32,000 nt of DNA from Kineococcus radiotolerans SRS30216 = ATCC BAA-149 (GTDB taxonomy: Bacteria > Actinomycetota > Actinomycetes > Actinomycetales > Kineococcaceae), in contig NC_009664.2 in assembly GCF_000017305.1 (NCBI RefSeq), forward strand, positions 2,940,001-2,972,000, written 5' to 3'. The notes under the pieces are model-generated. The model was not told the DNA's origin, searched no databases, and worked only from the letters and a program-made list of their open reading frames with translations. Both the position numbers and the translations under genes were made by a program. Below are positions 8,551 through 17,234 of the stretch, in pieces (positions within the stretch are counted from its first letter, which is position 1; every line of letters begins with the position of its first letter).

Positions 8551-9833
8551 GCCAGCAGCAGTTCGCCGCCGTCGACGTCATCCGCACCAAGCGCGACCGG
8601 GGGGAGCTCTCCGACGCCCAGATCGACTGGGTGGTCGACGCCTACACCCGCGGCGAGGTCGCCGAGGAGCAGATGTCGGCGCTCGCGATGGCCGTCCTGC
8701 TCAACGGGATGACGCGCGCCGAGGTCTCGCGCTGGACGGGCGCGATGATCGCCTCCGGCGCCCGGCTGGACTTCACCGACCTGCCCCGGCCCAGCGTCGA
8801 CAAGCACTCCACCGGCGGGGTGGGGGACAAGACGACGCTGCCGCTGGCGCCGCTCGTCGCGGCCTGCGGCGCGGCCGTCCCGCAGCTGTCCGGGCGCGGC
8901 CTCGGCCACACCGGCGGGACCCTGGACAAGCTGGAGGCGATCCCCGGCTGGCGGGCGTCGCTCACGCTGCCGGAGATCCGCGCGCAGCTGACCGACCTCG
9001 GCGCGGTGATCTGCGCGGCGACCGGCGACCTCGCCCCGGCGGACAAGAAGCTCTACGCCCTGCGCGACGTGACCGGCACCGTGGAGGCGATCCCGCTCAT
9101 CGCCAGCTCCATCATGAGCAAGAAGATCGCCGAGGGCACCAGCGCGCTCGTCCTGGACGTCAAGACCGGCTCCGGGGCGTTCATGAAGGAGCTCGCGCAG
9201 TCCGTGGAGCTGGCCCGCACGATGGTCGACCTCGGCACCGACGCCGGGGTGCGGACCGTCGCCGTCGTCACCGACATGTCCACCGTGCTGGGCCGCACCG
9301 CGGGCAACGCGCTGGAGGTGCGGGAGTCCGTCGAGGTCCTCGCCGGGGGCGGGCCCGCGGACCTGGTGGAGCTCACCCTGGTGCTGGCCCGGGAGATGCT
9401 CGCCGCCGTGGGCCTGGACGCCGTCGACCCCGCCGACGCCCTCGCCGACGGCCGCGCCATGGACGCCTGGCGGCGGATGGTCGCCGCCCAGGGCGGGGAC
9501 CCCGACGCCCCGCTGCCGGTGGCCCGCCACACCCAGGACGTGCTGGCCCCGGCCGACGGGTTCCTCCACGTCGACGCGATGGCCGTCGGGGTCGCCGCCT
9601 GGCGGCTGGGGGCGGGACGCTCCCGGCGCGAGGAGGCCGTGCAGGCCGGCGCCGGGGTGGAGCTGCACGCCGTGCGCGGGGACCGGGTGCGGGCCGGGCA
9701 GCGGATCGCGACCCTGCACACCGACACCCCGGAACGCTTCGAGTGGGCCGTGCAGGCCCTCGAGGGCGGTTTCCCGGTGTCGGCGACGGCCCCCGAGCCG
9801 GTGCCGCTGGTCCACCAGCGCGTCACCGCCTGA
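8547..9833 (+). CDS. deoA: thymidine / pyrimidine-nucleoside phosphorylase
   Basis: GTG 8547 overlaps the cdd TGA (8547..8550). Motifs [12 protein letters not shown] and [16 protein letters not shown]. Confidence 0.92.
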
Positions 9834-9916
9834 ACCCGCACCACCCGGACGGGCCGACGGTGGATCGAGGTCCGGCGGCCCCCGCCCGATCCCCCCGGGG
9901 ACAGGGGGGAGACCAC

Positions 9917-12202
9917 GTGGACCTGGGACCGCGGCCCGGCGCGGGGGCCGGGCGGCGCCACGGGTGGCTGGGGTGGGTGCTGGTGGCCGCGCTGGCCGGC
10001 GCGGGCTACCTGGCCCCCCTGTCCGACGCCGCCCGCAGCGCCCTGTTCGGCGGCCTCGGCGCGGTCGTCGTCGCCCTGTGCGCCGTGGTGGTCCGCCGCC
10101 GCCGCCCGACGCCCCCCTGGAGCTGGTCGCTCGTCCCCGCCTTCACCGCGCTGTTCCTCCTCGGGGCGGTGTGCCGGCCGTGGGCCGACGGCCGCCCGGG
10201 CCCCACCGCCTTCGTGCCCGACGTCTTCAGCGTCGCCGGCTACCTCGTCCTGGTCCTCGCCCTGGGCCGGATGGCGCGGGCCTCCGGCGGCCTGCGGCGG
10301 GAGGTGGTGTTCGACGCACTCGTCGCCAGCCTCGCCGGGGCGGGCGCGGCGGTGCAGTTCCTCGTCCTGCCGGTGCTGGAGGTGCCGGGGCGGTCCCTCC
10401 CCAGCTCCGTCCTGGCCGGGGTGTACCCGCTGCTCGACGTCGTGATCGTCGTCCTGGTGCTCGACCTCCTCCTGACCGCCCCCGCCGTCGTCGGCCACCG
10501 GTGGCTGGGCGCCGCCGTCGGGTGCCTGCTCGTGGGCGACCTCGGCTACGCCGTGCTGGGCCGGCAGGGGATCTTCGTCGCCCCCACCCGCTACGACGCA
10601 CCGTTCGTCCTGGCCTACGTGCTGCTGGCCGTCGCGGTGCTGCACGCGCCGCGCCGCGGCGAGCTCACGCCGCGGGGCCCCTCCGTCGACGCCTGGTCGC
10701 CCGCCCGCCTCGTGGCGCTGTGCCTCTCCCTCGTCGGCGGGGCCTACCTGGCCAGCACCCGCACCGACCAGGGCCTCGCGGAGCAGGTCGTCGCGTTCGC
10801 GGTGCTCTGCCTCGCGATCGGGCTCGTCCTCGCCCGGGCGGTGTCGGCCGTGAACGGGCACGCCGCGGCCAAGGTCGTCCTCGAGCACCGGGCCACCCAC
10901 GACGCCCTCACCGACCTGCTGGGGCGCGACGAGTTCACCCGGCGCGTCGAGGAGGACCTCACCGCCTCCCGCGGCCCCGGCGGGCCGGGCGTGCACCTGC
11001 TCTTCGTCGACCTCGACGGCTTCAAGCGCGTCAACGACACCCACGGCCACGGCGCCGGCGACGAGCTCCTCTGCGAGGTCGCCGCCCGCCTGCGGGCCCT
11101 GGCCCCGCCGCACGCGGTGATCGGCCGCCTCGCCGGCGACGAGTTCGTCGTCGCCGCGACCGGCGGGGTCGACACCGCCGTCGGGCTGGCCCGGGACCTG
11201 CTCGACGGCCTGCGCACCCCGGTGCCGCTACCCGTCGGGGAGGTCGTCGTCTCCGCCTCCCTCGGGATCGCGGAGGTGACGACCTCGCTGGCGGTCGCCC
11301 TGCGCGAGGCCGACGCCGCGATGTACCGGGCGAAGTCGCGCGGGCGCAACCAGTTCGTCGTCTGGGACGCGGCGATGCGCGAGGAGATCGGCGACCAGGT
11401 CGAGTTCGAGCTGGACCTGCGCAGCGCGGTCGCGGAACAGGCCCTGGAGGTCCACTACCAGGCCGTCGTCGCCGTGGCCGACGGCACCCCGCGCGGCGTG
11501 GAGGCGCTGCTGCGCTGGATCCACCCCCTGCACGGACCCGTCTCCCCGGTCGAGTTCGTCCCGGTCCTGGAGGAGACGGGTCTCGTCGTCGACGTCGGCC
11601 GCTGGGTGCTCGACACCGCGCTGGCCGACCTGAGCGCGTGGCGGCGCGACGGGGTCGTCGGCGACGACTTCGTCCTCTCCGTCAACGTCTCCCCGCGGCA
11701 GCTGCTCGACCCCTACTTCGCCGAGACGGTCCGCGAGCGGCTGCAGGCCCACGGGGTCGAGGGGAGGTCGCTGCTGCTGGAGATCACCGAGTCCTCCCTG
11801 CTGGAGCACGACGAGCGGACGCTGCGCCTGCTGGAGAGCCTGCGGTCCCTGGGGGCCGGTCTCGCCGTCGACGACTTCGGCACCGGGTACTCCTCCCTCA
11901 GCTACCTGCGCAGCTTCCCCGTCACCCGGGTGAAGGTCGACCGCAGCTTCGTCGCCGGGGTCAACCACCACGTCGGTGACGAGGCGGTGGTGCGCGCCGT
12001 CGTCGCCGTCAGCGAGGCCCTGGCGCTCGCGGTGACCGCCGAGGGGGTCGAGACGGAGGACCAGCGCCGCACCCTGCAGGAGCTGAGCGTCGCCCACGGG
12101 CAGGGGTGGCTGTGGCACCGGGCGCAGCCGGCCGGCGAGACGGCGGCGTACCTGCGGGCCGGCCGCGCGGCGCTGGGCCGGCTGCCCGTCAGGCCCGACT
12201 GA
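9917..12202 (+). CDS. membrane-anchored GGDEF-EAL protein (c-di-GMP turnover); degenerate GGDEF (AGDEF) and intact EAL
   Basis: GTG 9917 with GGGAG at 9907..9911. About nine to ten N-terminal hydrophobic segments. GGDEF domain (DALTDL...FKRVNDTHGHGAGDE...RLAGDEFVV). EAL domain (GVEALLRW, NVSPRQL, LEITE, DDFGTGYSSL, KVDRSF, EGVET, QGWLW). Start is approximate. Confidence 0.85.
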   Translation: MDLGPRPGAGAGRRHGWLGWVLVAALAGAGYLAPLSDAARSALFGGLGAVVVALCAVVVRRRRPTPPWSWSLVPAFTALFLLGAVCRPWADGRPGPTAFVPDVFSVAGYLVLVLALGRMARASGGLRREVVFDALVASLAGAGAAVQFLVLPVLEVPGRSLPSSVLAGVYPLLDVVIVVLVLDLLLTAPAVVGHRWLGAAVGCLLVGDLGYAVLGRQGIFVAPTRYDAPFVLAYVLLAVAVLHAPRRGELTPRGPSVDAWSPARLVALCLSLVGGAYLASTRTDQGLAEQVVAFAVLCLAIGLVLARAVSAVNGHAAAKVVLEHRATHDALTDLLGRDEFTRRVEEDLTASRGPGGPGVHLLFVDLDGFKRVNDTHGHGAGDELLCEVAARLRALAPPHAVIGRLAGDEFVVAATGGVDTAVGLARDLLDGLRTPVPLPVGEVVVSASLGIAEVTTSLAVALREADAAMYRAKSRGRNQFVVWDAAMREEIGDQVEFELDLRSAVAEQALEVHYQAVVAVADGTPRGVEALLRWIHPLHGPVSPVEFVPVLEETGLVVDVGRWVLDTALADLSAWRRDGVVGDDFVLSVNVSPRQLLDPYFAETVRERLQAHGVEGRSLLLEITESSLLEHDERTLRLLESLRSLGAGLAVDDFGTGYSSLSYLRSFPVTRVKVDRSFVAGVNHHVGDEAVVRAVVAVSEALALAVTAEGVETEDQRRTLQELSVAHGQGWLWHRAQPAGETAAYLRAGRAALGRLPVRPD

Positions 12203-12755
12203 AGTCGTAGGCCCAGTACGTCTGCACGTCGAGGCGCTCGCCCTCGGCCTCGTGGCCGAGGGAGTCCACGATGCGCCCGATCAGCTGGGGCAGCGCCAGC
12301 GCCTCCTCGTTGTAGCGGCAGATGTCCAGGCTGGCGATGCCGCCCCGCTCGTGGACGACGCGGCACACGGCCTCGACCAGCGTCACGAACACCCCGCTGC
12401 TGCGGTACGAGGGGTGCACCCCGACGCAGCCGATGTAGTAGATGGAGCGCTCGGCGAACTGGCGCGGCCAGCGGTGGCGGTAGTAGTCCTCGGAGAGCAG
12501 GTCGACGGCCGAGAGGTCGTCGGTGAGGGTGGCGAAGGAGCAGATGGCCTCGCCCCGGTCCAGGTCGCGCGTCACGTACTTGGTCCAGCGCTCGTCGGTG
12601 CAGACGTCCTCGAACTCCTCGCGGGTCATGAAGTGCTGCTGCACGGCGCGGGTCGCCAGCCCCGAGAAGGCGAGCTCGTAGGTCCTCCACGCCTGCTCGA
12701 GGTCGTCGCCGAGGAGGCGGGTGCTCGACTCGAGGGCGGTCCGGGCGCGGGCCAT
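12189..12755 (-). CDS. hypothetical protein, possible GNAT-fold acyltransferase
   Basis: ATG at 12755 (minus strand), with AGGAGG seven nt upstream (complement of 12763..12768). 188 aa with almost every codon ending in G/C. YYIGCVGVHPSYRSSGVFVTL resembles GNAT motif A; no other motif recognised. The upstream part of track ORF 12189..13238 is Arg/Pro junk. Confidence 0.6.
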   Translation of the reverse strand: MARARTALESSTRLLGDDLEQAWRTYELAFSGLATRAVQQHFMTREEFEDVCTDERWTKYVTRDLDRGEAICSFATLTDDLSAVDLLSEDYYRHRWPRQFAERSIYYIGCVGVHPSYRSSGVFVTLVEAVCRVVHERGGIASLDICRYNEEALALPQLIGRIVDSLGHEAEGERLDVQTYWAYDFSRA

Positions 12756-12768
12756 CTGGGTTCCTCCT

Positions 12769-12790
12769 GATCCGGGTGCTGCCCCGGATC
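12769..12790 (-). promoter_or_regulatory. 8-bp inverted repeat abutting the SD of the 12189..12755 gene
   Basis: GATCCGGG (12769..12776) and CCCGGATC (12783..12790) with a 6-nt loop. On the minus-strand mRNA the hairpin ends directly at AGGAGG. Confidence 0.3.
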
Positions 12791-12874
12791 CTCGCAGGCG
12801 GGGCCGGCGCTCTTGATCGCGAGTGGTCCCCGCCAGCCTTCCGGAACGGGGGCGGGGTGGGTATCGTCGCCCGC

Positions 12875-13171
12875 GTGGGTGACCGGGGGGTGCTGACGGC
12901 GCGGGTGTCGACCGCGCTGCTGCTGCCCCTGCTCGCCTCGGTCGTGCTGCTGGGCCAGCAGCCGCTGCTGGCCGCGGCGCTGCTCGTCGCCACCACCGTC
13001 GTGACCGGCCTCGTCGCGGTGCGCGGGGTCGTCGCGCAGCTCCTCGCGGCCGTCTCGCCGTCCCGGCCCCGGGCCCGGCTGGAACCCGCGGACACGTTGC
13101 CCCAGAACGAACCTGCTGCGGTGGGGAACCCGCAGCCGAGGGCACCGGGAGCGCAGCCGCTCCCGTGCTGA
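12875..13171 (+). CDS. small membrane protein with a C-terminal R-A-P-G motif; candidate arrest-peptide uORF for the downstream YidC paralog
   Basis: Internal GTG of track ORF 12776..13171 (alternative GTG at 12857). TATCGT at 12862..12867 lies seven nt before GTG 12875, a possible leaderless -10. Third codon positions are almost all G/C. Hydrophobic residues ~13-49 (STALLLPLLASVVLLG...LLAAALLVATTVVTGLVAV). Pro-rich tail NPQPRAPGAQPLPC, with RAPG at 13139..13150. Confidence 0.45.
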   Translation: MGDRGVLTARVSTALLLPLLASVVLLGQQPLLAAALLVATTVVTGLVAVRGVVAQLLAAVSPSRPRARLEPADTLPQNEPAAVGNPQPRAPGAQPLPC

Positions 13172-13191
13172 GCTGACGCGCGCACGGGAGC
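13159..13191 (+). promoter_or_regulatory. perfect 10-bp hairpin straddling the stop codon of the small ORF, upstream of the YidC paralog
   Basis: GCTCCCGTGC (13159..13168) pairs with GCACGGGAGC (13182..13191); the 13-nt loop contains TGA 13169..13171. A competing 7-bp pairing exists between ACGGGAG (13184..13190) and CTCCCGT (13198..13204). Confidence 0.4.
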
Positions 13192-13227
13192 CGTCGCCTC
13201 CCGTCCCCGCGATCCCCGGAGTTCCCC

Positions 13228-13929
13228 GTGCTCGACACCCCGCTGGAAACCCTGCACGCCCCGTTGCGCCCGGTCGAGGAGGCCGTGGCTCAGGTCCTCG
13301 TCCACCTGCACGACGTCGGCGCCCCCTGGCCGCTGGCGGTCCTCGGCCTCGTCGTCCTCGCCCGCACCCTGCTGCTGCCGCTGTTCGTCGCCCAGCAGCG
13401 CGCCGTCCTCCGCGCGGCCGCACTCCGCCCGCGGGTCCTCGCCGTTCAGGACCGCTACCGCGGCCGGACCGACCCCGCGTCCCGCCGGGCGCTGCAGCAG
13501 GAGGTGGCCGCCCTGCACCGGCAGGCTGGGGTGAACCCCCTCGGCGGGTGCCTGCCCGGTCTGCTGCAGGCCCCGGTCTTCCTGGCCCTCACCCTGACCC
13601 TGCAGTCCGGCGACACCCTGACCGCGTTCGGGTCCGCGACCCTCGCCGGGGCACCCCTGTCGGGGGTGCTCACCCACGCCCCGGGACCGGCGACGCTGCT
13701 CGTGGGCATCCTCCTGCTGCTGCTGACCGCCGCGACGCAGGTGGTCACGGTGCGCGCGGGAACCAGCGGGGTGCCCGCGCCGACGGCACTGCTGGTGGTG
13801 CTGCCCGCCCTCGTGGTCGTCCCCGCCGTGCACTTCCCGATCGGCGTCCTCCTGTACTGGGCGGCGTCGGGGGTGTGGTCGGCGGGCCAGCAGCTGGTCG
13901 CCCGCTGGGTCGTGCTCAGGCGGCGCTGA
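13228..13929 (+). CDS. YidC/Oxa1-family membrane protein insertase (short paralog)
   Basis: GTG 13228 with GGAG at 13218..13221. The segment LLLPLFVAQQRA...LRPRVLAVQDRY...LQQEVAALHRQAGVNPLGGCLPGLLQAPVFLAL matches the conserved YidC core (KQ..., NP-x-x-GCLP-x-L-x-Q-x-P). 233 aa. Confidence 0.8.
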   Translation: MLDTPLETLHAPLRPVEEAVAQVLVHLHDVGAPWPLAVLGLVVLARTLLLPLFVAQQRAVLRAAALRPRVLAVQDRYRGRTDPASRRALQQEVAALHRQAGVNPLGGCLPGLLQAPVFLALTLTLQSGDTLTAFGSATLAGAPLSGVLTHAPGPATLLVGILLLLLTAATQVVTVRAGTSGVPAPTALLVVLPALVVVPAVHFPIGVLLYWAASGVWSAGQQLVARWVVLRRR

Positions 13930-14893
13930 CCGCCGCGGCCGGGGCGCCGCTCGGCGGGGTCCCGCCCCCGCCCGGACCGCCCCCGGGGTGCCCGGAGCTG
14001 TCCGAGCCCATCCCGGCCATGGTGCCGGCGGTGGGTTCGGTGGTGGTGTCGACCCCGACGGTGAGGGCGATCGCGTAGCCGTTCGTCACGTCCCCGCTGG
14101 ACGTCGGGGTCTGGCTCGCCCCGCCGTCGTCGCCGAAGACGTTGTCGGTCGCCAGCGTGACCCGGGCGAGGTTCGTCACCGACTGCTCGTACCCGGTCGT
14201 GGCGTACACGGCCTCGCACGCCTCCTGCGGCAACGCCACCTGGGAGGTCGCGATGCAGTTCGCGACGTCGGTGATGCTCTCGGCGTCGGGGTAGACCTCG
14301 AAGTGGACGTGCGGCCAGCGCCCGTCGTAGCAGGCGGGGAAGACGCTGGTGAAGGTGACGTTCCCGTCGGCGTCGGCGACCTGCACCCCGCGCAGGTAGT
14401 TCTCGTCCGCGATGTCCTCGGAGTAGAGGGAGTACTCCCCGTCGCGGTCGCAGTGCCACACGTAGACGGCGACCCCTTCGAAGGGGACGTTCCCGCCCGC
14501 GAGGTCGACGACGGTCAGGGTGAGGGTCATCGGGACGCCCTCGGCGGTGGTGGTGCTGGTCCCGAAGCTGGAGCGGATGTCGCTGCGCACGACCCCGCTC
14601 CGCTCCAGGACGTCGACGCCGTTGGAGCCGTCGCCGGGGTAGGGGCCGGCGGTCTCGTCGGGGATCTCGGTGAGGGCGCCGGAGGTGGGGGCCGACGAGC
14701 TCGTGCTGCTGGAGGCGGTCGCGTCGTCGCCGCAGGCCGCCAGGGTCAGCCCGGCGGCGCCGAGGCCGAGCAGGCCGAGGGCGCGGCGGCGGGTCGCCAC
14801 GGTCGCGAGGTCGAACGCGAGACCCTGGTCGTCGACGTCCTCGGCGGGGCGGGGCAGGGGGCGACCCTCGTAGCTGGGGCGGTGGTTCGTCAT
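13916..14893 (-). CDS. intradiol ring-cleavage dioxygenase-like protein, predicted Tat-exported lipoprotein
   Basis: Twin-arginine n-region (ATRRRALGLLGLGAAG) followed by lipobox L-A-A-C. Dioxygenase core (VYVWHCDRDGEYS, GRWPHVHFEV). Gly/Pro-rich C-terminal tail. Confidence 0.75.
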   Translation of the reverse strand: MTNHRPSYEGRPLPRPAEDVDDQGLAFDLATVATRRRALGLLGLGAAGLTLAACGDDATASSSTSSSAPTSGALTEIPDETAGPYPGDGSNGVDVLERSGVVRSDIRSSFGTSTTTAEGVPMTLTLTVVDLAGGNVPFEGVAVYVWHCDRDGEYSLYSEDIADENYLRGVQVADADGNVTFTSVFPACYDGRWPHVHFEVYPDAESITDVANCIATSQVALPQEACEAVYATTGYEQSVTNLARVTLATDNVFGDDGGASQTPTSSGDVTNGYAIALTVGVDTTTEPTAGTMAGMGSDSSGHPGGGPGGGGTPPSGAPAAAVSAA

Positions 14894-14915: not shown

Positions 14916-16313
14916 TCAGGAGACGGCGGTGTCCCGCCGGTGCGTTCCCTGTGAGACGCGGCGGGCGGTGAGCAGGGCCAGCACGGCCAGACCCGCGCAC
15001 AGCGGCAGCGTCCCGGCGAACCCCGCCCACGCCGACACCGCCCCCAGCGCGCCGAAGGCCAGCCCGGTGAGGGCGGTGGCCGTCCCCCCGCCGGTGGCGT
15101 CCGAGATCGTCAGCGCCGCCGAACCGGCGCCCTCGGTGCCCGCGGGGGACTGCTCCAGCACCAGCACCGTGGTGCGGGGGTAGGCCAGGCCCATCCCGGC
15201 CCCCGCGACGAACCACCCCAGGGCGCAGGCGGTCCCGGCCACGACGGCGCCGGGGGAGACCGCCGCCACGACGGCCTGCGCCGCGACCCCGGTCAGCAGC
15301 AGGGCGCTGCCCGTCCGGACGGCGCGCGCGTGCGGGAGGCGGTGCCCCAGCCGACCCTGGACCGCCGCCCCCGAGGCCCACGCGACCGCGGCCGCGGTGA
15401 GCGTCGCCCCGGCCAGCCACAGCTCCAACCCGAAGCGCTCGTGCAGCATCAGCGGCAGGTAGACCTCGGTGCTGAAGAACGCCGCGGCCAGCAGCCCCCG
15501 CAGCGCGACGGTGGCGGGCAGCCCGGGCTGCGCGGTGAGGGAGCCGGGGGGCAGCAGCGGGCGCACGGCGACGACGAGCACGGCGAGCGCCGCCGCCGCG
15601 GCCACCCAGCGCCAGGGCCCCGCCGACCCCGCCGAGCTGAGGACCACGACCGCCCCCGCGACCCCCGCCGCGGCGACGAACCGGCGGCGCGGCGAGGGGC
15701 CGGCGGCGGCCGCGGAGGGCGGGACGCGCAGCAGGGCCGGCAGCACGGCCGCCGAGGCCAGCAGCACCAGCAGCAGCACCCCGGAGAACACCCAGGGCCA
15801 CCCCAGCGCCTGCGCCACCAGCGCGGCGAGGAACGGCCCCACCAGCGAGGGCAGCACCCAGGCGGAGGCGAAGGCCCCGAACACCGCCGGCCGCAGCGCC
15901 GGGGGGAACACCAGCGCCACCACGACGTACAGCGTGACGTTGATCCCGCCCGCCCCCAGGCCCTGCAGGAACCGCGCGGCGACGAAGAACCCCATCGTCG
16001 GGGCGAGGGCGGCGGCCAGCAGGCCGGCGGCGAAGACGGCGATCGCGGCCAGCAGCGGCCGGCCCGGACCGCGGCGGTCGGCCCAGCCGCCGGCGACGAC
16101 CATGCCCAGGACGCTCGCCGCGAGGGTCGCGGCGAACGCCGTCGCGTACTCCCCGCGCCCGCCCAGGTCGGCGCTGACCACGGGCATCACCGTCGTCACC
16201 GCGAGGCTCTCGAACGCGGTGAGGAACACCAGCGCCGTCGTCCCGAGGGTGGTCACGAGGTAGGGGCGGGAGAGGATGCCCGCGCTCGGGGCGGTGGTGG
16301 TGCTGGAGGTCAC
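14916..16313 (-). CDS. MFS transporter
   Basis: 465 aa with about 12-14 hydrophobic segments and typical MFS loops (GGWADRRGPGRP). Lies downstream of LysR on the same strand. Confidence 0.85.
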   Translation of the reverse strand: MTSSTTTAPSAGILSRPYLVTTLGTTALVFLTAFESLAVTTVMPVVSADLGGRGEYATAFAATLAASVLGMVVAGGWADRRGPGRPLLAAIAVFAAGLLAAALAPTMGFFVAARFLQGLGAGGINVTLYVVVALVFPPALRPAVFGAFASAWVLPSLVGPFLAALVAQALGWPWVFSGVLLLVLLASAAVLPALLRVPPSAAAAGPSPRRRFVAAAGVAGAVVVLSSAGSAGPWRWVAAAAALAVLVVAVRPLLPPGSLTAQPGLPATVALRGLLAAAFFSTEVYLPLMLHERFGLELWLAGATLTAAAVAWASGAAVQGRLGHRLPHARAVRTGSALLLTGVAAQAVVAAVSPGAVVAGTACALGWFVAGAGMGLAYPRTTVLVLEQSPAGTEGAGSAALTISDATGGGTATALTGLAFGALGAVSAWAGFAGTLPLCAGLAVLALLTARRVSQGTHRRDTAVS

Positions 16314-16346: not shown

Positions 16347-17234
16347 TCAAGCGCCGGCGGCGAGGGTCCGCAGGGCGTCGAGGACGGTGCGGACCCCGCG
16401 GCGGGCCAGGGCCTCCGGGCGCAGCAGCGCGTCCACGCGGCGGTTCACGCCCAGGTCGGCCAGCGGCCGGAGCACGACGCCGGGACCGGGGCGGGTCGTG
16501 CGGGCCGGCAGCAGGGCCACCGCGTCCCCGGTGGCGACGACGGCGGCGGCCACGAAGACCTCGTTGATGCGGTGCACGACGTCCAGCGGCCGCCGGGCCG
16601 CGACCGCGACGACGTCGAGGGCCCCGGCCAGCGGGAACCCCTCGTGGACCGAGACCCAGCGCTCGCCGGCGACGTCGGCGACGGTGAGGCGGTCCCGCCG
16701 CGCCAGCGGGTGGTCCGCGGCCAGCGCCACGTGCAGCGGCTCGGTGAGCAGCGGCACCACCCGCACCCGGTGCGCCGGCCACGGCGCCCCGGCCTCGGGG
16801 CGGTGGGCGATCACGACGTCGTAGTCGGCCACGAGGGCGGGGAAGTCCTGCTGGGCGACGTCCTCGTCCGCGCACCGCAGGGGCGGGGTCCCGTCCAGCT
16901 CGCGCAGCAGCGGCCCGAACCAGGCCAGCGCGGCGGAGTGGAAGGCGCACACGCCCACCGGGGCGTCGGGGGCGTCGAGGTGCTCGCCCACCGCCCGCGC
17001 GGCCCGGTCCAGCGCGGCCGCGACGTCCACGGCGGCCGCCGCCAGCGCCTCGCCCGCGGGGGTCAGGGCGAGGCGCCGGCCGCGCTTCTCGGTCAGCGGG
17101 GTGGGGCAGGTGCGCTGCAGCGCGGCGAGCTGCTGCGACACCGCGGAGGGGGTGACGTGCAGGGCGCGGGCGACGGCGACGAGGCTGCCCCGCTCGGACA
17201 GCTCGCGCAGGATCGTCAGCTGCCGCACGTCCAT
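16347..17234 (-). CDS. LysR-family transcriptional regulator
   Basis: N-terminal HTH MDVRQLTILRELSERGSLVAVARALHVTPSAVSQQLAALQR plus a LysR substrate-binding body. Divergent from the EamA gene. Confidence 0.9.
   Translation of the reverse strand: MDVRQLTILRELSERGSLVAVARALHVTPSAVSQQLAALQRTCPTPLTEKRGRRLALTPAGEALAAAAVDVAAALDRAARAVGEHLDAPDAPVGVCAFHSAALAWFGPLLRELDGTPPLRCADEDVAQQDFPALVADYDVVIAHRPEAGAPWPAHRVRVVPLLTEPLHVALAADHPLARRDRLTVADVAGERWVSVHEGFPLAGALDVVAVAARRPLDVVHRINEVFVAAAVVATGDAVALLPARTTRPGPGVVLRPLADLGVNRRVDALLRPEALARRGVRTVLDALRTLAAGA

Follow-up and report, generated by a model that had tools for sequence, protein, structure and literature searches.

ApcA is an arrest peptide encoded upstream of yidC2 in actinobacteria, having either one transmembrane (TM) segment or two, and a conserved C terminus (Sakiyama et al. 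2021, PMC7897499). It stalls with the proline of its R-A-P-G motif in the ribosomal P site and the glycine codon in the A site, and stalling has been demonstrated only in a heterologous Bacillus system (PMC7897499). A survey by Fujiwara et al. 2024 (PMC10987492) reported 1,590 ApcA-like sequences, all from Actinobacteriota; its clusters include RAPS, RAPA, RAPT and, rarely, RAPE variants, and the Kineococcus radiotolerans genome GCF_000017305.1 was among those screened. Here we analysed a 32,000-nucleotide (nt) stretch of the K. radiotolerans chromosome (the window, 76% G+C), in which a small open reading frame (ORF) at 12875-13171 precedes a gene for a YidC/Oxa1-family insertase, yidC2. This ORF very probably encodes a divergent Kineococcus member of the ApcA family, which makes it a member of an already described class and not a new type of element. 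Taking identity and arrest together, there is good reason to regard it as an ApcA-family arrest peptide ('monitoring substrate') heading a two-gene apcA-yidC2 operon. An earlier note on this DNA had named R-A-P-G/P as the motif of the ApcA, ApdA and ApdP class, with MifM and SecM as precedents, and the literature agrees (PMC7897499).

The reading frame outlined in that note, from GTG 12875 (or an alternative upstream start, GTG 12857) to TGA 13171 with mostly G or C in third codon positions, is present and coincides with an annotated gene, listed here with its predicted peptide features.

12875..13171, forward strand: apcA-like ORF, 98 codons plus TGA; exact match to RefSeq WP_157873602.1, 'hypothetical protein', 98 residues
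12908..13021, forward strand: two hydrophobic segments, about residues 12-27 and 30-49, split by GQQP (Kyte-Doolittle 19-residue windows above 1.6)
13094..13150, forward strand: arrest domain TLPQNEPAAVGNPQPRAPG, residues 74-92 (residue invariance, DUF6412 match to residues 73-95, hhalign to published ApcA)
13139..13150, forward strand: R-A-P-G codons AGG GCA CCG GGA, residues 89-92 of 98, six codons before the stop

Sequence and profile searches returned 12 homologous proteins, all from Kineococcus or metagenomic contigs, and on this sampling the subfamily appears restricted so far to that genus and related contigs. DNA was recovered for 16 related loci, 15 of which include the downstream region (L018 ends before its yidC). 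The earlier note had proposed looking in relatives for a TM-plus-RAPG ORF upstream of yidC, and the arrangement is conserved: a small ORF lies 51-108 nt upstream of a yidC homolog in 15/15 loci, the homolog being identified by a 60KD_IMP Pfam match in seven of the 15 and elsewhere from the translated N terminus or cut by the contig end. The spacer measures 51-59 nt in group-1 loci, 75 nt in L014 and 90-108 nt in group 2 (L003, L008, L009 and L010), and the genes upstream of the small ORF differ among loci (a divergent GNAT gene, thymidine phosphorylase and others). All 16 loci keep its frame open, although protein identity is 57-80%, insertions occur and the start contexts differ.

Conservation is concentrated at the C terminus, whose last 20 or so residues (LPQN.PA..GN.QPRAP) are the most conserved part of the protein, above the membrane segments. 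Among 11 proteins, L75, P76, Q77, N78, P80, A81, G84, N85, Q87, P88, R89, A90 and P91 are invariant, and when the codons are compared one by one, many of these columns vary synonymously; because the invariant residues are retained through synonymous change, selection acts on the peptide. The R-A-P triplet is invariant in 16/16 loci and is followed by G in 14 and by E in two. RAPE, with GAG as its last codon, replaces RAPG at L007:1556-1567 and L014:1759-1770, where the GGAG at the base of the hairpin described below is retained. Group-2 loci carry a longer tail, PRPAASTA, with the stop 14 codons after the P-site codon.

Two kinds of evidence could be marshalled for the absence of any real gene, with a chance ORF in front of yidC and a conserved region that is an RNA leader only: long spurious ORFs are abundant in all frames of the window, and constraints at the RNA level are clear in the 3' part of the region. 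We regard this as extremely improbable. G+C content at the three codon positions is gene-typical (0.84/0.56/0.92, against 0.83/0.51/0.95 for the neighbouring yidC, the same pattern), the frame has stayed open through the divergence just described, many columns are invariant in amino acid with synonymous variation, and RefSeq and other pipelines annotate the gene.

The assignment to the ApcA family rests on a match to DUF6412 (PF19950) over equivalent positions, on profile-profile alignment and on yidC synteny. Nine published ApcA sequences were taken from Table S7 of PMC7897499, and five of them were scored against the Pfam model. ApcA of Rhodococcus erythropolis reached 32.4 bits over its arrest domain (threshold 26.9) and the four others 20.6-29.7 bits, so that two of the five fell below the threshold (20.6 and 22.9). 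The window peptide scored 18.3 bits (E 0.002), with residues 73-95 aligned to model positions 6-28 of 30, and NCBI names two of the Kineococcus homologs DUF6412. The alignment with ApcA homologs that the earlier note had suggested, made with hhalign between a Kineococcus profile and a profile of the nine ApcA sequences, gave 94.6% probability (E 6.9e-8) over 27 columns with 41% identity, ending in PRAPG (...LPQNEPAAVGNP-QPRAPG versus ...LPQRDPDARGR-RPRAPG). The profile of the published set matches more than 1,275 DUF6412 proteins, and both Streptomyces DUF6412 loci that we examined have yidC directly downstream. The ORF also fits the published search criteria (PMC7897499, PMC10987492), which comprise a length of 80-200 residues, a spacer between TM segment and arrest site exceeding 30 residues (2024) or 40 residues (2021), and R-A-P-x or R-G-P-x near the stop: position and size agree, there are two hydrophobic segments, the spacer is 30-42 residues and the motif is RAP(G/E). 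The idea of an ApcA/MifM-like ORF ahead of a putative YidC paralog is thus supported by DUF6412, hhalign and synteny, as far as sequence analysis reaches.

Three observations pull the other way. The 18.3 bits of the window peptide lie below the Pfam gathering score of 26.9, although within the range that accepted members cover; an NCBIfam scan of the peptide gave no match; and G85, F87 and R88, which matter for arrest in R. erythropolis ApcA (PMC7897499), are not conserved here in the hhalign alignment. The motif itself, which the earlier note had correctly placed six codons before the stop, is common by chance in DNA of this composition: translated in six frames, the window yields 45 instances of RAPG or RAPP, and about 0.08 are expected per 98-residue ORF. 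RAPG alone is no evidence because of these 45 occurrences in a G+C-rich window; conservation, synteny and homology lift this instance above chance.

These figures bear on the proposal that the product is a small protein crossing the membrane twice and co-expressed with YidC2, in which RAPG is incidental and plain translational coupling operates through melting of a hairpin, with no sensing. The frequency of the motif, the sub-threshold Pfam score and the loss of the distal R. erythropolis arrest residues would fit such a protein, as would a hairpin that spans the stop codon and that any terminating ribosome would open. The proposal nonetheless seems very unlikely to us: the 20-residue tail ending in PRAP is the most conserved part of the protein and is kept through synonymous changes, it is homologous to a domain shown experimentally to stall ribosomes, the R-A-P triplet never varies, and the RAPE of L007 and L014 is catalogued in ApcA clusters. 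On the basis of homology, the ORF product is likely to arrest its ribosome. If it stalls as R. erythropolis ApcA does in toeprints and tRNA northern blots (PMC7897499), the predicted arrest would have the P site occupied by the Pro codon CCG (13145-13147) and the A site by the Gly codon GGA (13148-13150).

The N-terminal hydrophobic segments that the earlier note had put at about residues 13-49 were recovered on the Kyte-Doolittle scale as the pair listed above. Hydropathy peaks at 2.45 over residues 31-49, the second stretch extends weakly to about residue 61, and Arg residues precede the first stretch and follow the second. From this scale, the pair is a candidate YidC-dependent hairpin membrane anchor that would leave the C terminus in the cytosol. 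Hydrophobic character is kept in all homologs, with a sequence less conserved than that of the tail. The spacer between the last hydrophobic segment and Pro91 is 42 residues if the segment ends at 49, or 30 if it ends at 61.

The hexamer TATCGT, from which the earlier note had suggested a leaderless transcript, is likewise present, and its type and spacing recur among relatives.

12862..12867, forward strand: -10-like hexamer TATCGT (TANNNT), 7 nt 5' of GTG 12875; probable promoter

Leaderless mRNAs are common in actinobacteria, where the transcription start site follows a TANNNT -10 box by 6-8 nt. A TANNNT box (TATCGT, TAGGGT, TAAGGT or TAACGT) stands 7 nt before the matching in-frame GTG in the window and in 10 group-1 relatives, while the flanking bases and the upstream genes vary; L014 has TATGGT 6 nt before an ATG start. 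The conserved spacing points to a start at 12875, hence to the 98-residue product, and the apcA-yidC2 transcript is probably leaderless, beginning at that GTG. A scan for the sigma-70 promoter consensus, which was not tuned to actinobacterial promoters, gave no match. In group 2, the layout is different, with an ATG start after a strong GGGGGAGGAGG Shine-Dalgarno (SD) sequence.

Downstream, the YidC/Oxa1-family gene that the earlier note had read from GTG 13228 was borne out by Pfam and TIGRFAM models.

13218..13221, forward strand: SD sequence GGAG of yidC2, 6 nt before GTG 13228
13228..13929, forward strand: yidC2, encoding a 233-residue YidC/Oxa1-family insertase; exact database match (ABS05404.1 / WP_012086311.1); PF02096 60KD_IMP, E 6e-32

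The ORF stop and the yidC2 start are separated by 56 nt on the same strand. The yidC2 product passes TIGR03592 (120 bits, cut-off 84) and scores 126 bits on the actinobacterial YidC equivalog model NF002350, whose cut-off is 282; among the window genes around yidC2, the neighbours rnpA, yidD and jag are absent, and the product is a candidate for the secondary paralog (YidC2). At its SD, CGGAG is invariant in 13/14 aligned loci.

The perfect 10-base-pair (bp) hairpin straddling the ORF stop that the earlier note had described proved to be the top of a longer conserved structure, which we call the rod.

13146..13203, forward strand: long hairpin (rod), with base CGGGAG 13146-13151 paired to CTCCCG 13198-13203 (local minimum free energy (MFE) structure, RNAalifold)
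13159..13191, forward strand: top stem, GCTCCCGTGC (13159-13168) paired to GCACGGGAGC (13182-13191), perfect 10 bp; 13-nt loop containing the stop 13169-13171

The lowest pairs of the rod join CTCCCG to the 3' end of the Pro codon plus the Gly (A-site) codon; in its middle, the variable post-arrest codons pair with the variable non-coding spacer. The rod is formed by the local MFE in 14/14 folded loci and in L017, including loci with a 50-80-nt loop insertion (a shortened stretch was folded for L001). In the top stem, 97% of cells are paired across 14 loci, and a compensatory change from U:A to C:G distinguishes the locus groups (Cys TGC to Arg CGC on the coding side, A to G on the non-coding side), together with several further compatible changes from G:C to G:U. 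Compensatory combinations also occur in the middle of the rod, for example GCUG/CAGC in L012, GUCGUC/GACGAC in L007 and GGGGACGA/UCGUCUCC in L002 and L017, and the RNAalifold consensus has compensatory changes at four rod pairs. On a structure-blind MAFFT alignment, 94.4% of rod cells were paired, compared with 30-57% in slid controls. Nine cells were changed on both sides versus 4.1 in shuffles (2/500 shuffles), and the covariation score was 0.155 versus 0.109 ± 0.013 (0/500). These statistics use 11-15 related sequences, since genome and metagenome profile scans added only four loci, and because related sequences inflate such numbers, we grade the covariation support for the rod as moderate.

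Constraint on the RNA is suggested independently of covariation by codon usage. The post-arrest codons CTC CCG TGC (L-P-C), which form the 5' arm of the top stem, lie outside the nascent chain at arrest, yet they are conserved with almost no synonymous variation, which argues for a constraint at the RNA level. The arrest-site Gly is encoded by GGA in 10/12 loci and never by GGC, although GGA makes up 3.2% of Gly codons in neighbouring genes. On the non-coding side, CTCCCGT and the YCCCGC that follows it are nearly invariant. An Rfam search of 12700-13400 gave no match.

Several further features of this region were recorded. The top-stem loop 13169-13181 (UGAGCUGACGCGC) is almost invariant in 9/11 group-1 loci, more so than a loop requires. 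It contains a second TGA, 13174-13176, in the reading frame of yidC, by which frameshifted ribosomes could not enter yidC; a frameshift at the arrest site into that frame was excluded by this -1-frame stop. In group 2, the top-stem arms are 65-83 nt apart, and in Kineococcus sp. SYSU DK006 (L003:2651-2686) the long-hairpin loop holds three tandem copies of ACCCCGGCTCGA with arms that still pair, an expansion absent from the sister loci L008-L010. An alternative hairpin between 13146-13153 and 13158-13165 is perfect in six loci and was set aside as not general.

The rod also bears on the RNA switch proposed in the earlier note, in which the 3' arm of the top hairpin pairs instead with a segment complementary to the yidC2 SD. 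That pairing can indeed form, between ACGGGAG 13184-13190 and CTCCCGT 13198-13204, and it is not the best-supported structure: covariation is lacking, L007, L017 and group 2 have it in weakened form, and CTCCCGT is better accounted for as the base of the rod. RNAalifold consensus folds of two alignments gave a different candidate link between the arrest site and the start of yidC2, which we call helix S1.

13140..13145, forward strand: 5' strand of S1, GGGCAC, within the R-A-P codons
13228..13233, forward strand: 3' strand of S1, GTGCTC, the yidC2 start codon and the next codon

S1 has on average 6.3 of 7 pairs across 15 loci, compared with 1.2-4.6 when either strand is slid, and it closes the local MFE in 9/15 loci. 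The CGAGCAC of L005, L007 and L014 is the exact reverse complement of GUGCUCG. When 16-nt windows of the upstream ORF and spacer were scanned against the yidC2 initiation region, the arrest-site window was, as a mean over 14 loci, among the two best, at -16.5 kcal/mol against an overall -9.6 ± 2.35. In the K. radiotolerans sequence, the arrest-site codons gave -20.4 kcal/mol with the initiation region, and the anti-SD segment CTCCCGT gave -6.4. Codon choice at the arrest site is unusual as well. Ala is GCA in 12/14 loci (1.4% of Ala codons in neighbouring genes), and Arg is CGA, CGG or AGG, all purine-ending and read by different tRNAs (AGG is 2.3% of Arg codons in neighbouring genes), never CGC, though CGC accounts for 58% of Arg codons there. 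Codons for R, A and G here thus avoid C in third position, even though 50-61% of the codons of these families in neighbouring genes end in C.

The arrest domain as a whole (13097-13150 and the same columns in L001-L018) is rich in conserved rare codons ending in A or U, such as TTG in 11/14 loci (1% of Leu codons in neighbouring genes) and GAA in 9/12. The proposed helices account only for GCA, GGA and the absence of Arg CGC, not for TTG or GAA.

Several points weigh against a regulatory S1. Five of its seven pairs are fixed by the encoded R-A-P and V-L, and when synonymous codons are drawn at random, the pairing observed is reached with P = 0.14-0.6 per locus. Partition-function calculations with the footprints of stalled, queued or terminating ribosomes masked gave no consistent change in SD or start accessibility: mean start-codon accessibility moved from 0.19 to 0.21 under the stalled-footprint mask. 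With so much G+C in the RNA, some other partner is always available to the initiation region. In the window's own single-sequence MFE, the start region pairs with 13123-13129, in a helix that is not conserved; the discoverers of ApcA found no SD-masking hairpin (PMC7897499); and S1 was not seen in the two Streptomyces loci, where the start region has a better partner than the arrest-site codons. A generalization of S1 to Streptomyces was dropped on these two loci. Also rejected, as a conserved element, was the outer helix between GGGGAAC 13123-13129 and GUUCCCC 13221-13227, which appears in the single-sequence MFE and whose changes in relatives are uncompensated; its segment 13123-13129 is still, on average, among the two best start-region partners.

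The two Streptomyces loci have a complementarity of their own. After the arrest site, CCCUCC (L015, 1799-1804; L016, 1811-1816) is the exact complement of the yidC2 SD GGAGGG (1914-1919 and 1969-1974, respectively). Its position, 10-15 nt beyond the first base of the P site, would be covered by a stalled ribosome, with the SD 110-150 nt downstream and a duplex energy of -18 to -19 kcal/mol; the ApcA publications report no SD-masking structure. This CCCUCC:SD complementarity is a hint of a shared theme that each lineage solves in its own way.

How an arrested ribosome would act on yidC2 can be outlined as follows. The mRNA would probably begin at GTG 12875, leaderless, and its translation would yield a nascent chain whose two N-terminal hydrophobic segments require YidC-type insertion. 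In the exit tunnel, the tail ...LPQNEPAAVGNPQPRAP would block peptidyl transfer from Pro91-tRNA to Gly-tRNA, as extrapolated from ApcA, ApdA and ApdP. Membrane insertion would pull on the chain and free the arrest, and the stall would therefore last longer when insertase capacity is low. In mRNA free of ribosomes, conservation and covariation suggest that 13146-13203 folds as the long hairpin with the A-site codon at its base; GGGCAC 13140-13145 could then plausibly pair with GUGCUC 13228-13233, the hairpin bringing the two strands close. A ribosome halted on RAP|G, covering about 13130-13160, would open S1 and the lower hairpin and expose the yidC2 start. The earlier note had cautioned that a stalled ribosome would abut the hairpin and not engulf it. 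The top stem begins at +14 from the P site; the difficulty is removed because a ribosome arrested at 13145-13147 would occupy the 5' strand of S1 and the lower rod.

We put forward this specific unmasking through S1 tentatively, as a model that could well be wrong. The broader notion is held no more firmly: in the Kineococcus lineage, the arrest site may possibly be built into an RNA switch, such that the arrested ribosome directly opens the yidC2 initiation region. If true, it would supply the link from ApcA arrest to yidC2 induction for which the discoverers had looked in vain, it would account for the rare codons and for residues being conserved past the arrest point, and a related arrangement (CCCUCC / GGAGGG) may hold in Streptomyces.

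ApcA-type arrest might instead be coupled to yidC2 by a route other than S1 unmasking, for which three options can be named. CUCCCGU 13198-13204, freed from the hairpin base, could pair with the SD and give arrest-dependent repression; the stable top stem, 14 nt after the first P-site base, could prolong the pause or block resumption; or the hairpin could be cut by RNase III or processed in another way, which would set the stability of the yidC2 mRNA. During a stall, 13192-13204 would become free, including the CUCC complementary to GGAG, the top stem at the mRNA entry would survive the stall, CTCCCGT and YCCCGC are nearly invariant non-coding sequence, and computed accessibility lends no clear support to unmasking, all of which suit such routes. 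Set against them, the CUCC:GGAG pairing is 4 bp long (-6.4 kcal/mol) and broken in L007 (CCCC), and every monitoring substrate characterised so far (SecM, MifM, VemP, uDF_RQH and CliM) induces the downstream gene when stalled (PMC10987492, PMC13183943); a scan for intrinsic terminators found none, and no U-tract terminator is present. Weighing these points, we consider coupling by another route unlikely, though less so than the readings without arrest or without a gene.

The surroundings of the two genes comprise five flanking genes, none of which is related to protein export.

9743-12202, forward strand: membrane GGDEF-EAL protein
12189-12755, reverse strand: GNAT acetyltransferase, divergent
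13916-14893, reverse strand: dioxygenase-domain protein, convergent, with a Tat-like N terminus
14916-16313, reverse strand: MFS transporter
16347-17234, reverse strand: LysR regulator

The dioxygenase and MFS transporter pair is syntenic in L004.

The locus adds a divergent ApcA subfamily that standard annotation has mostly missed and leaves the picture of what such elements are unchanged. What it adds is a conserved RNA layout with the arrest codons at its centre, which gives a testable idea for coupling arrest to yidC2. The system is compact, with a putatively leaderless upstream ORF, a 56-nt spacer and one conserved hairpin, and point changes in GCA, in 13198-13203 and in GUG CUC would be informative.

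Compared with known systems, the locus is closest to ApcA of R. erythropolis. Both have an actinobacterial host and lie directly upstream of a gene for a short YidC, here a putative paralog; both products have about 100 residues, one or two N-terminal TM segments (predicted here) and a cytosolic tail; and both carry, a few codons ahead of the stop, ...P.A.G...PRAP(G) within arrest domains that are homologous at the profile level, with the RAPE variant present in Kineococcus relatives. Unlike ApcA, the Kineococcus sequence falls below the Pfam gathering score and is annotated as a 'hypothetical protein', and the distal residues that are important in Rhodococcus are not conserved. The group-1 spacer of 51-59 nt contrasts with 109-148 nt in the two Streptomyces loci. 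A probable leaderless start also sets Kineococcus apart, as do a hairpin based at the arrest site and complementarity between the GUG start and the R-A-P codons, neither of which has been reported for ApcA.

MifM-yidC2 of Bacillus subtilis offers the same proposed arrangement, a membrane-anchored product of an upstream ORF that monitors YidC and arrests near its 3' end. MifM stalls at several consecutive codons via an acidic cluster, not at RAP|G. It belongs to Firmicutes and has a single TM segment, unlike the Kineococcus peptide, which shows no sequence similarity to it, has no acidic cluster in its tail and matched nothing in Pfam and NCBIfam other than DUF6412. When stalled on MifM, the ribosome opens a stem by which the initiation region of yidC2 is masked (PMC7897499), and the logic proposed here is the same. 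With SecM-secA of Escherichia coli, ApdA and ApdP, the Kineococcus peptide shares the core R-A-(G/P)-(P/G), with the codon of the third residue in the P site (predicted here); in those three, peptidyl transfer is blocked (PMC10951233, PMC10951299, PMC12992588), and the SecM-stalled ribosome disrupts a stem-loop hiding the secA SD (PMC10987492). They differ in monitoring Sec by way of signal peptides, in lying upstream of secA or secDF and in having Pro in the A site, where the Kineococcus system would monitor YidC through a TM hairpin and has Gly. CliM (uC_KYxIW), encoded upstream of yidC in Clostridia, is likewise reported (PMC13183943) as an arrest peptide from an upstream ORF that monitors YidC; it has an unrelated K-Y-x-I-W motif, comes from another phylum and arrests by different mechanisms.

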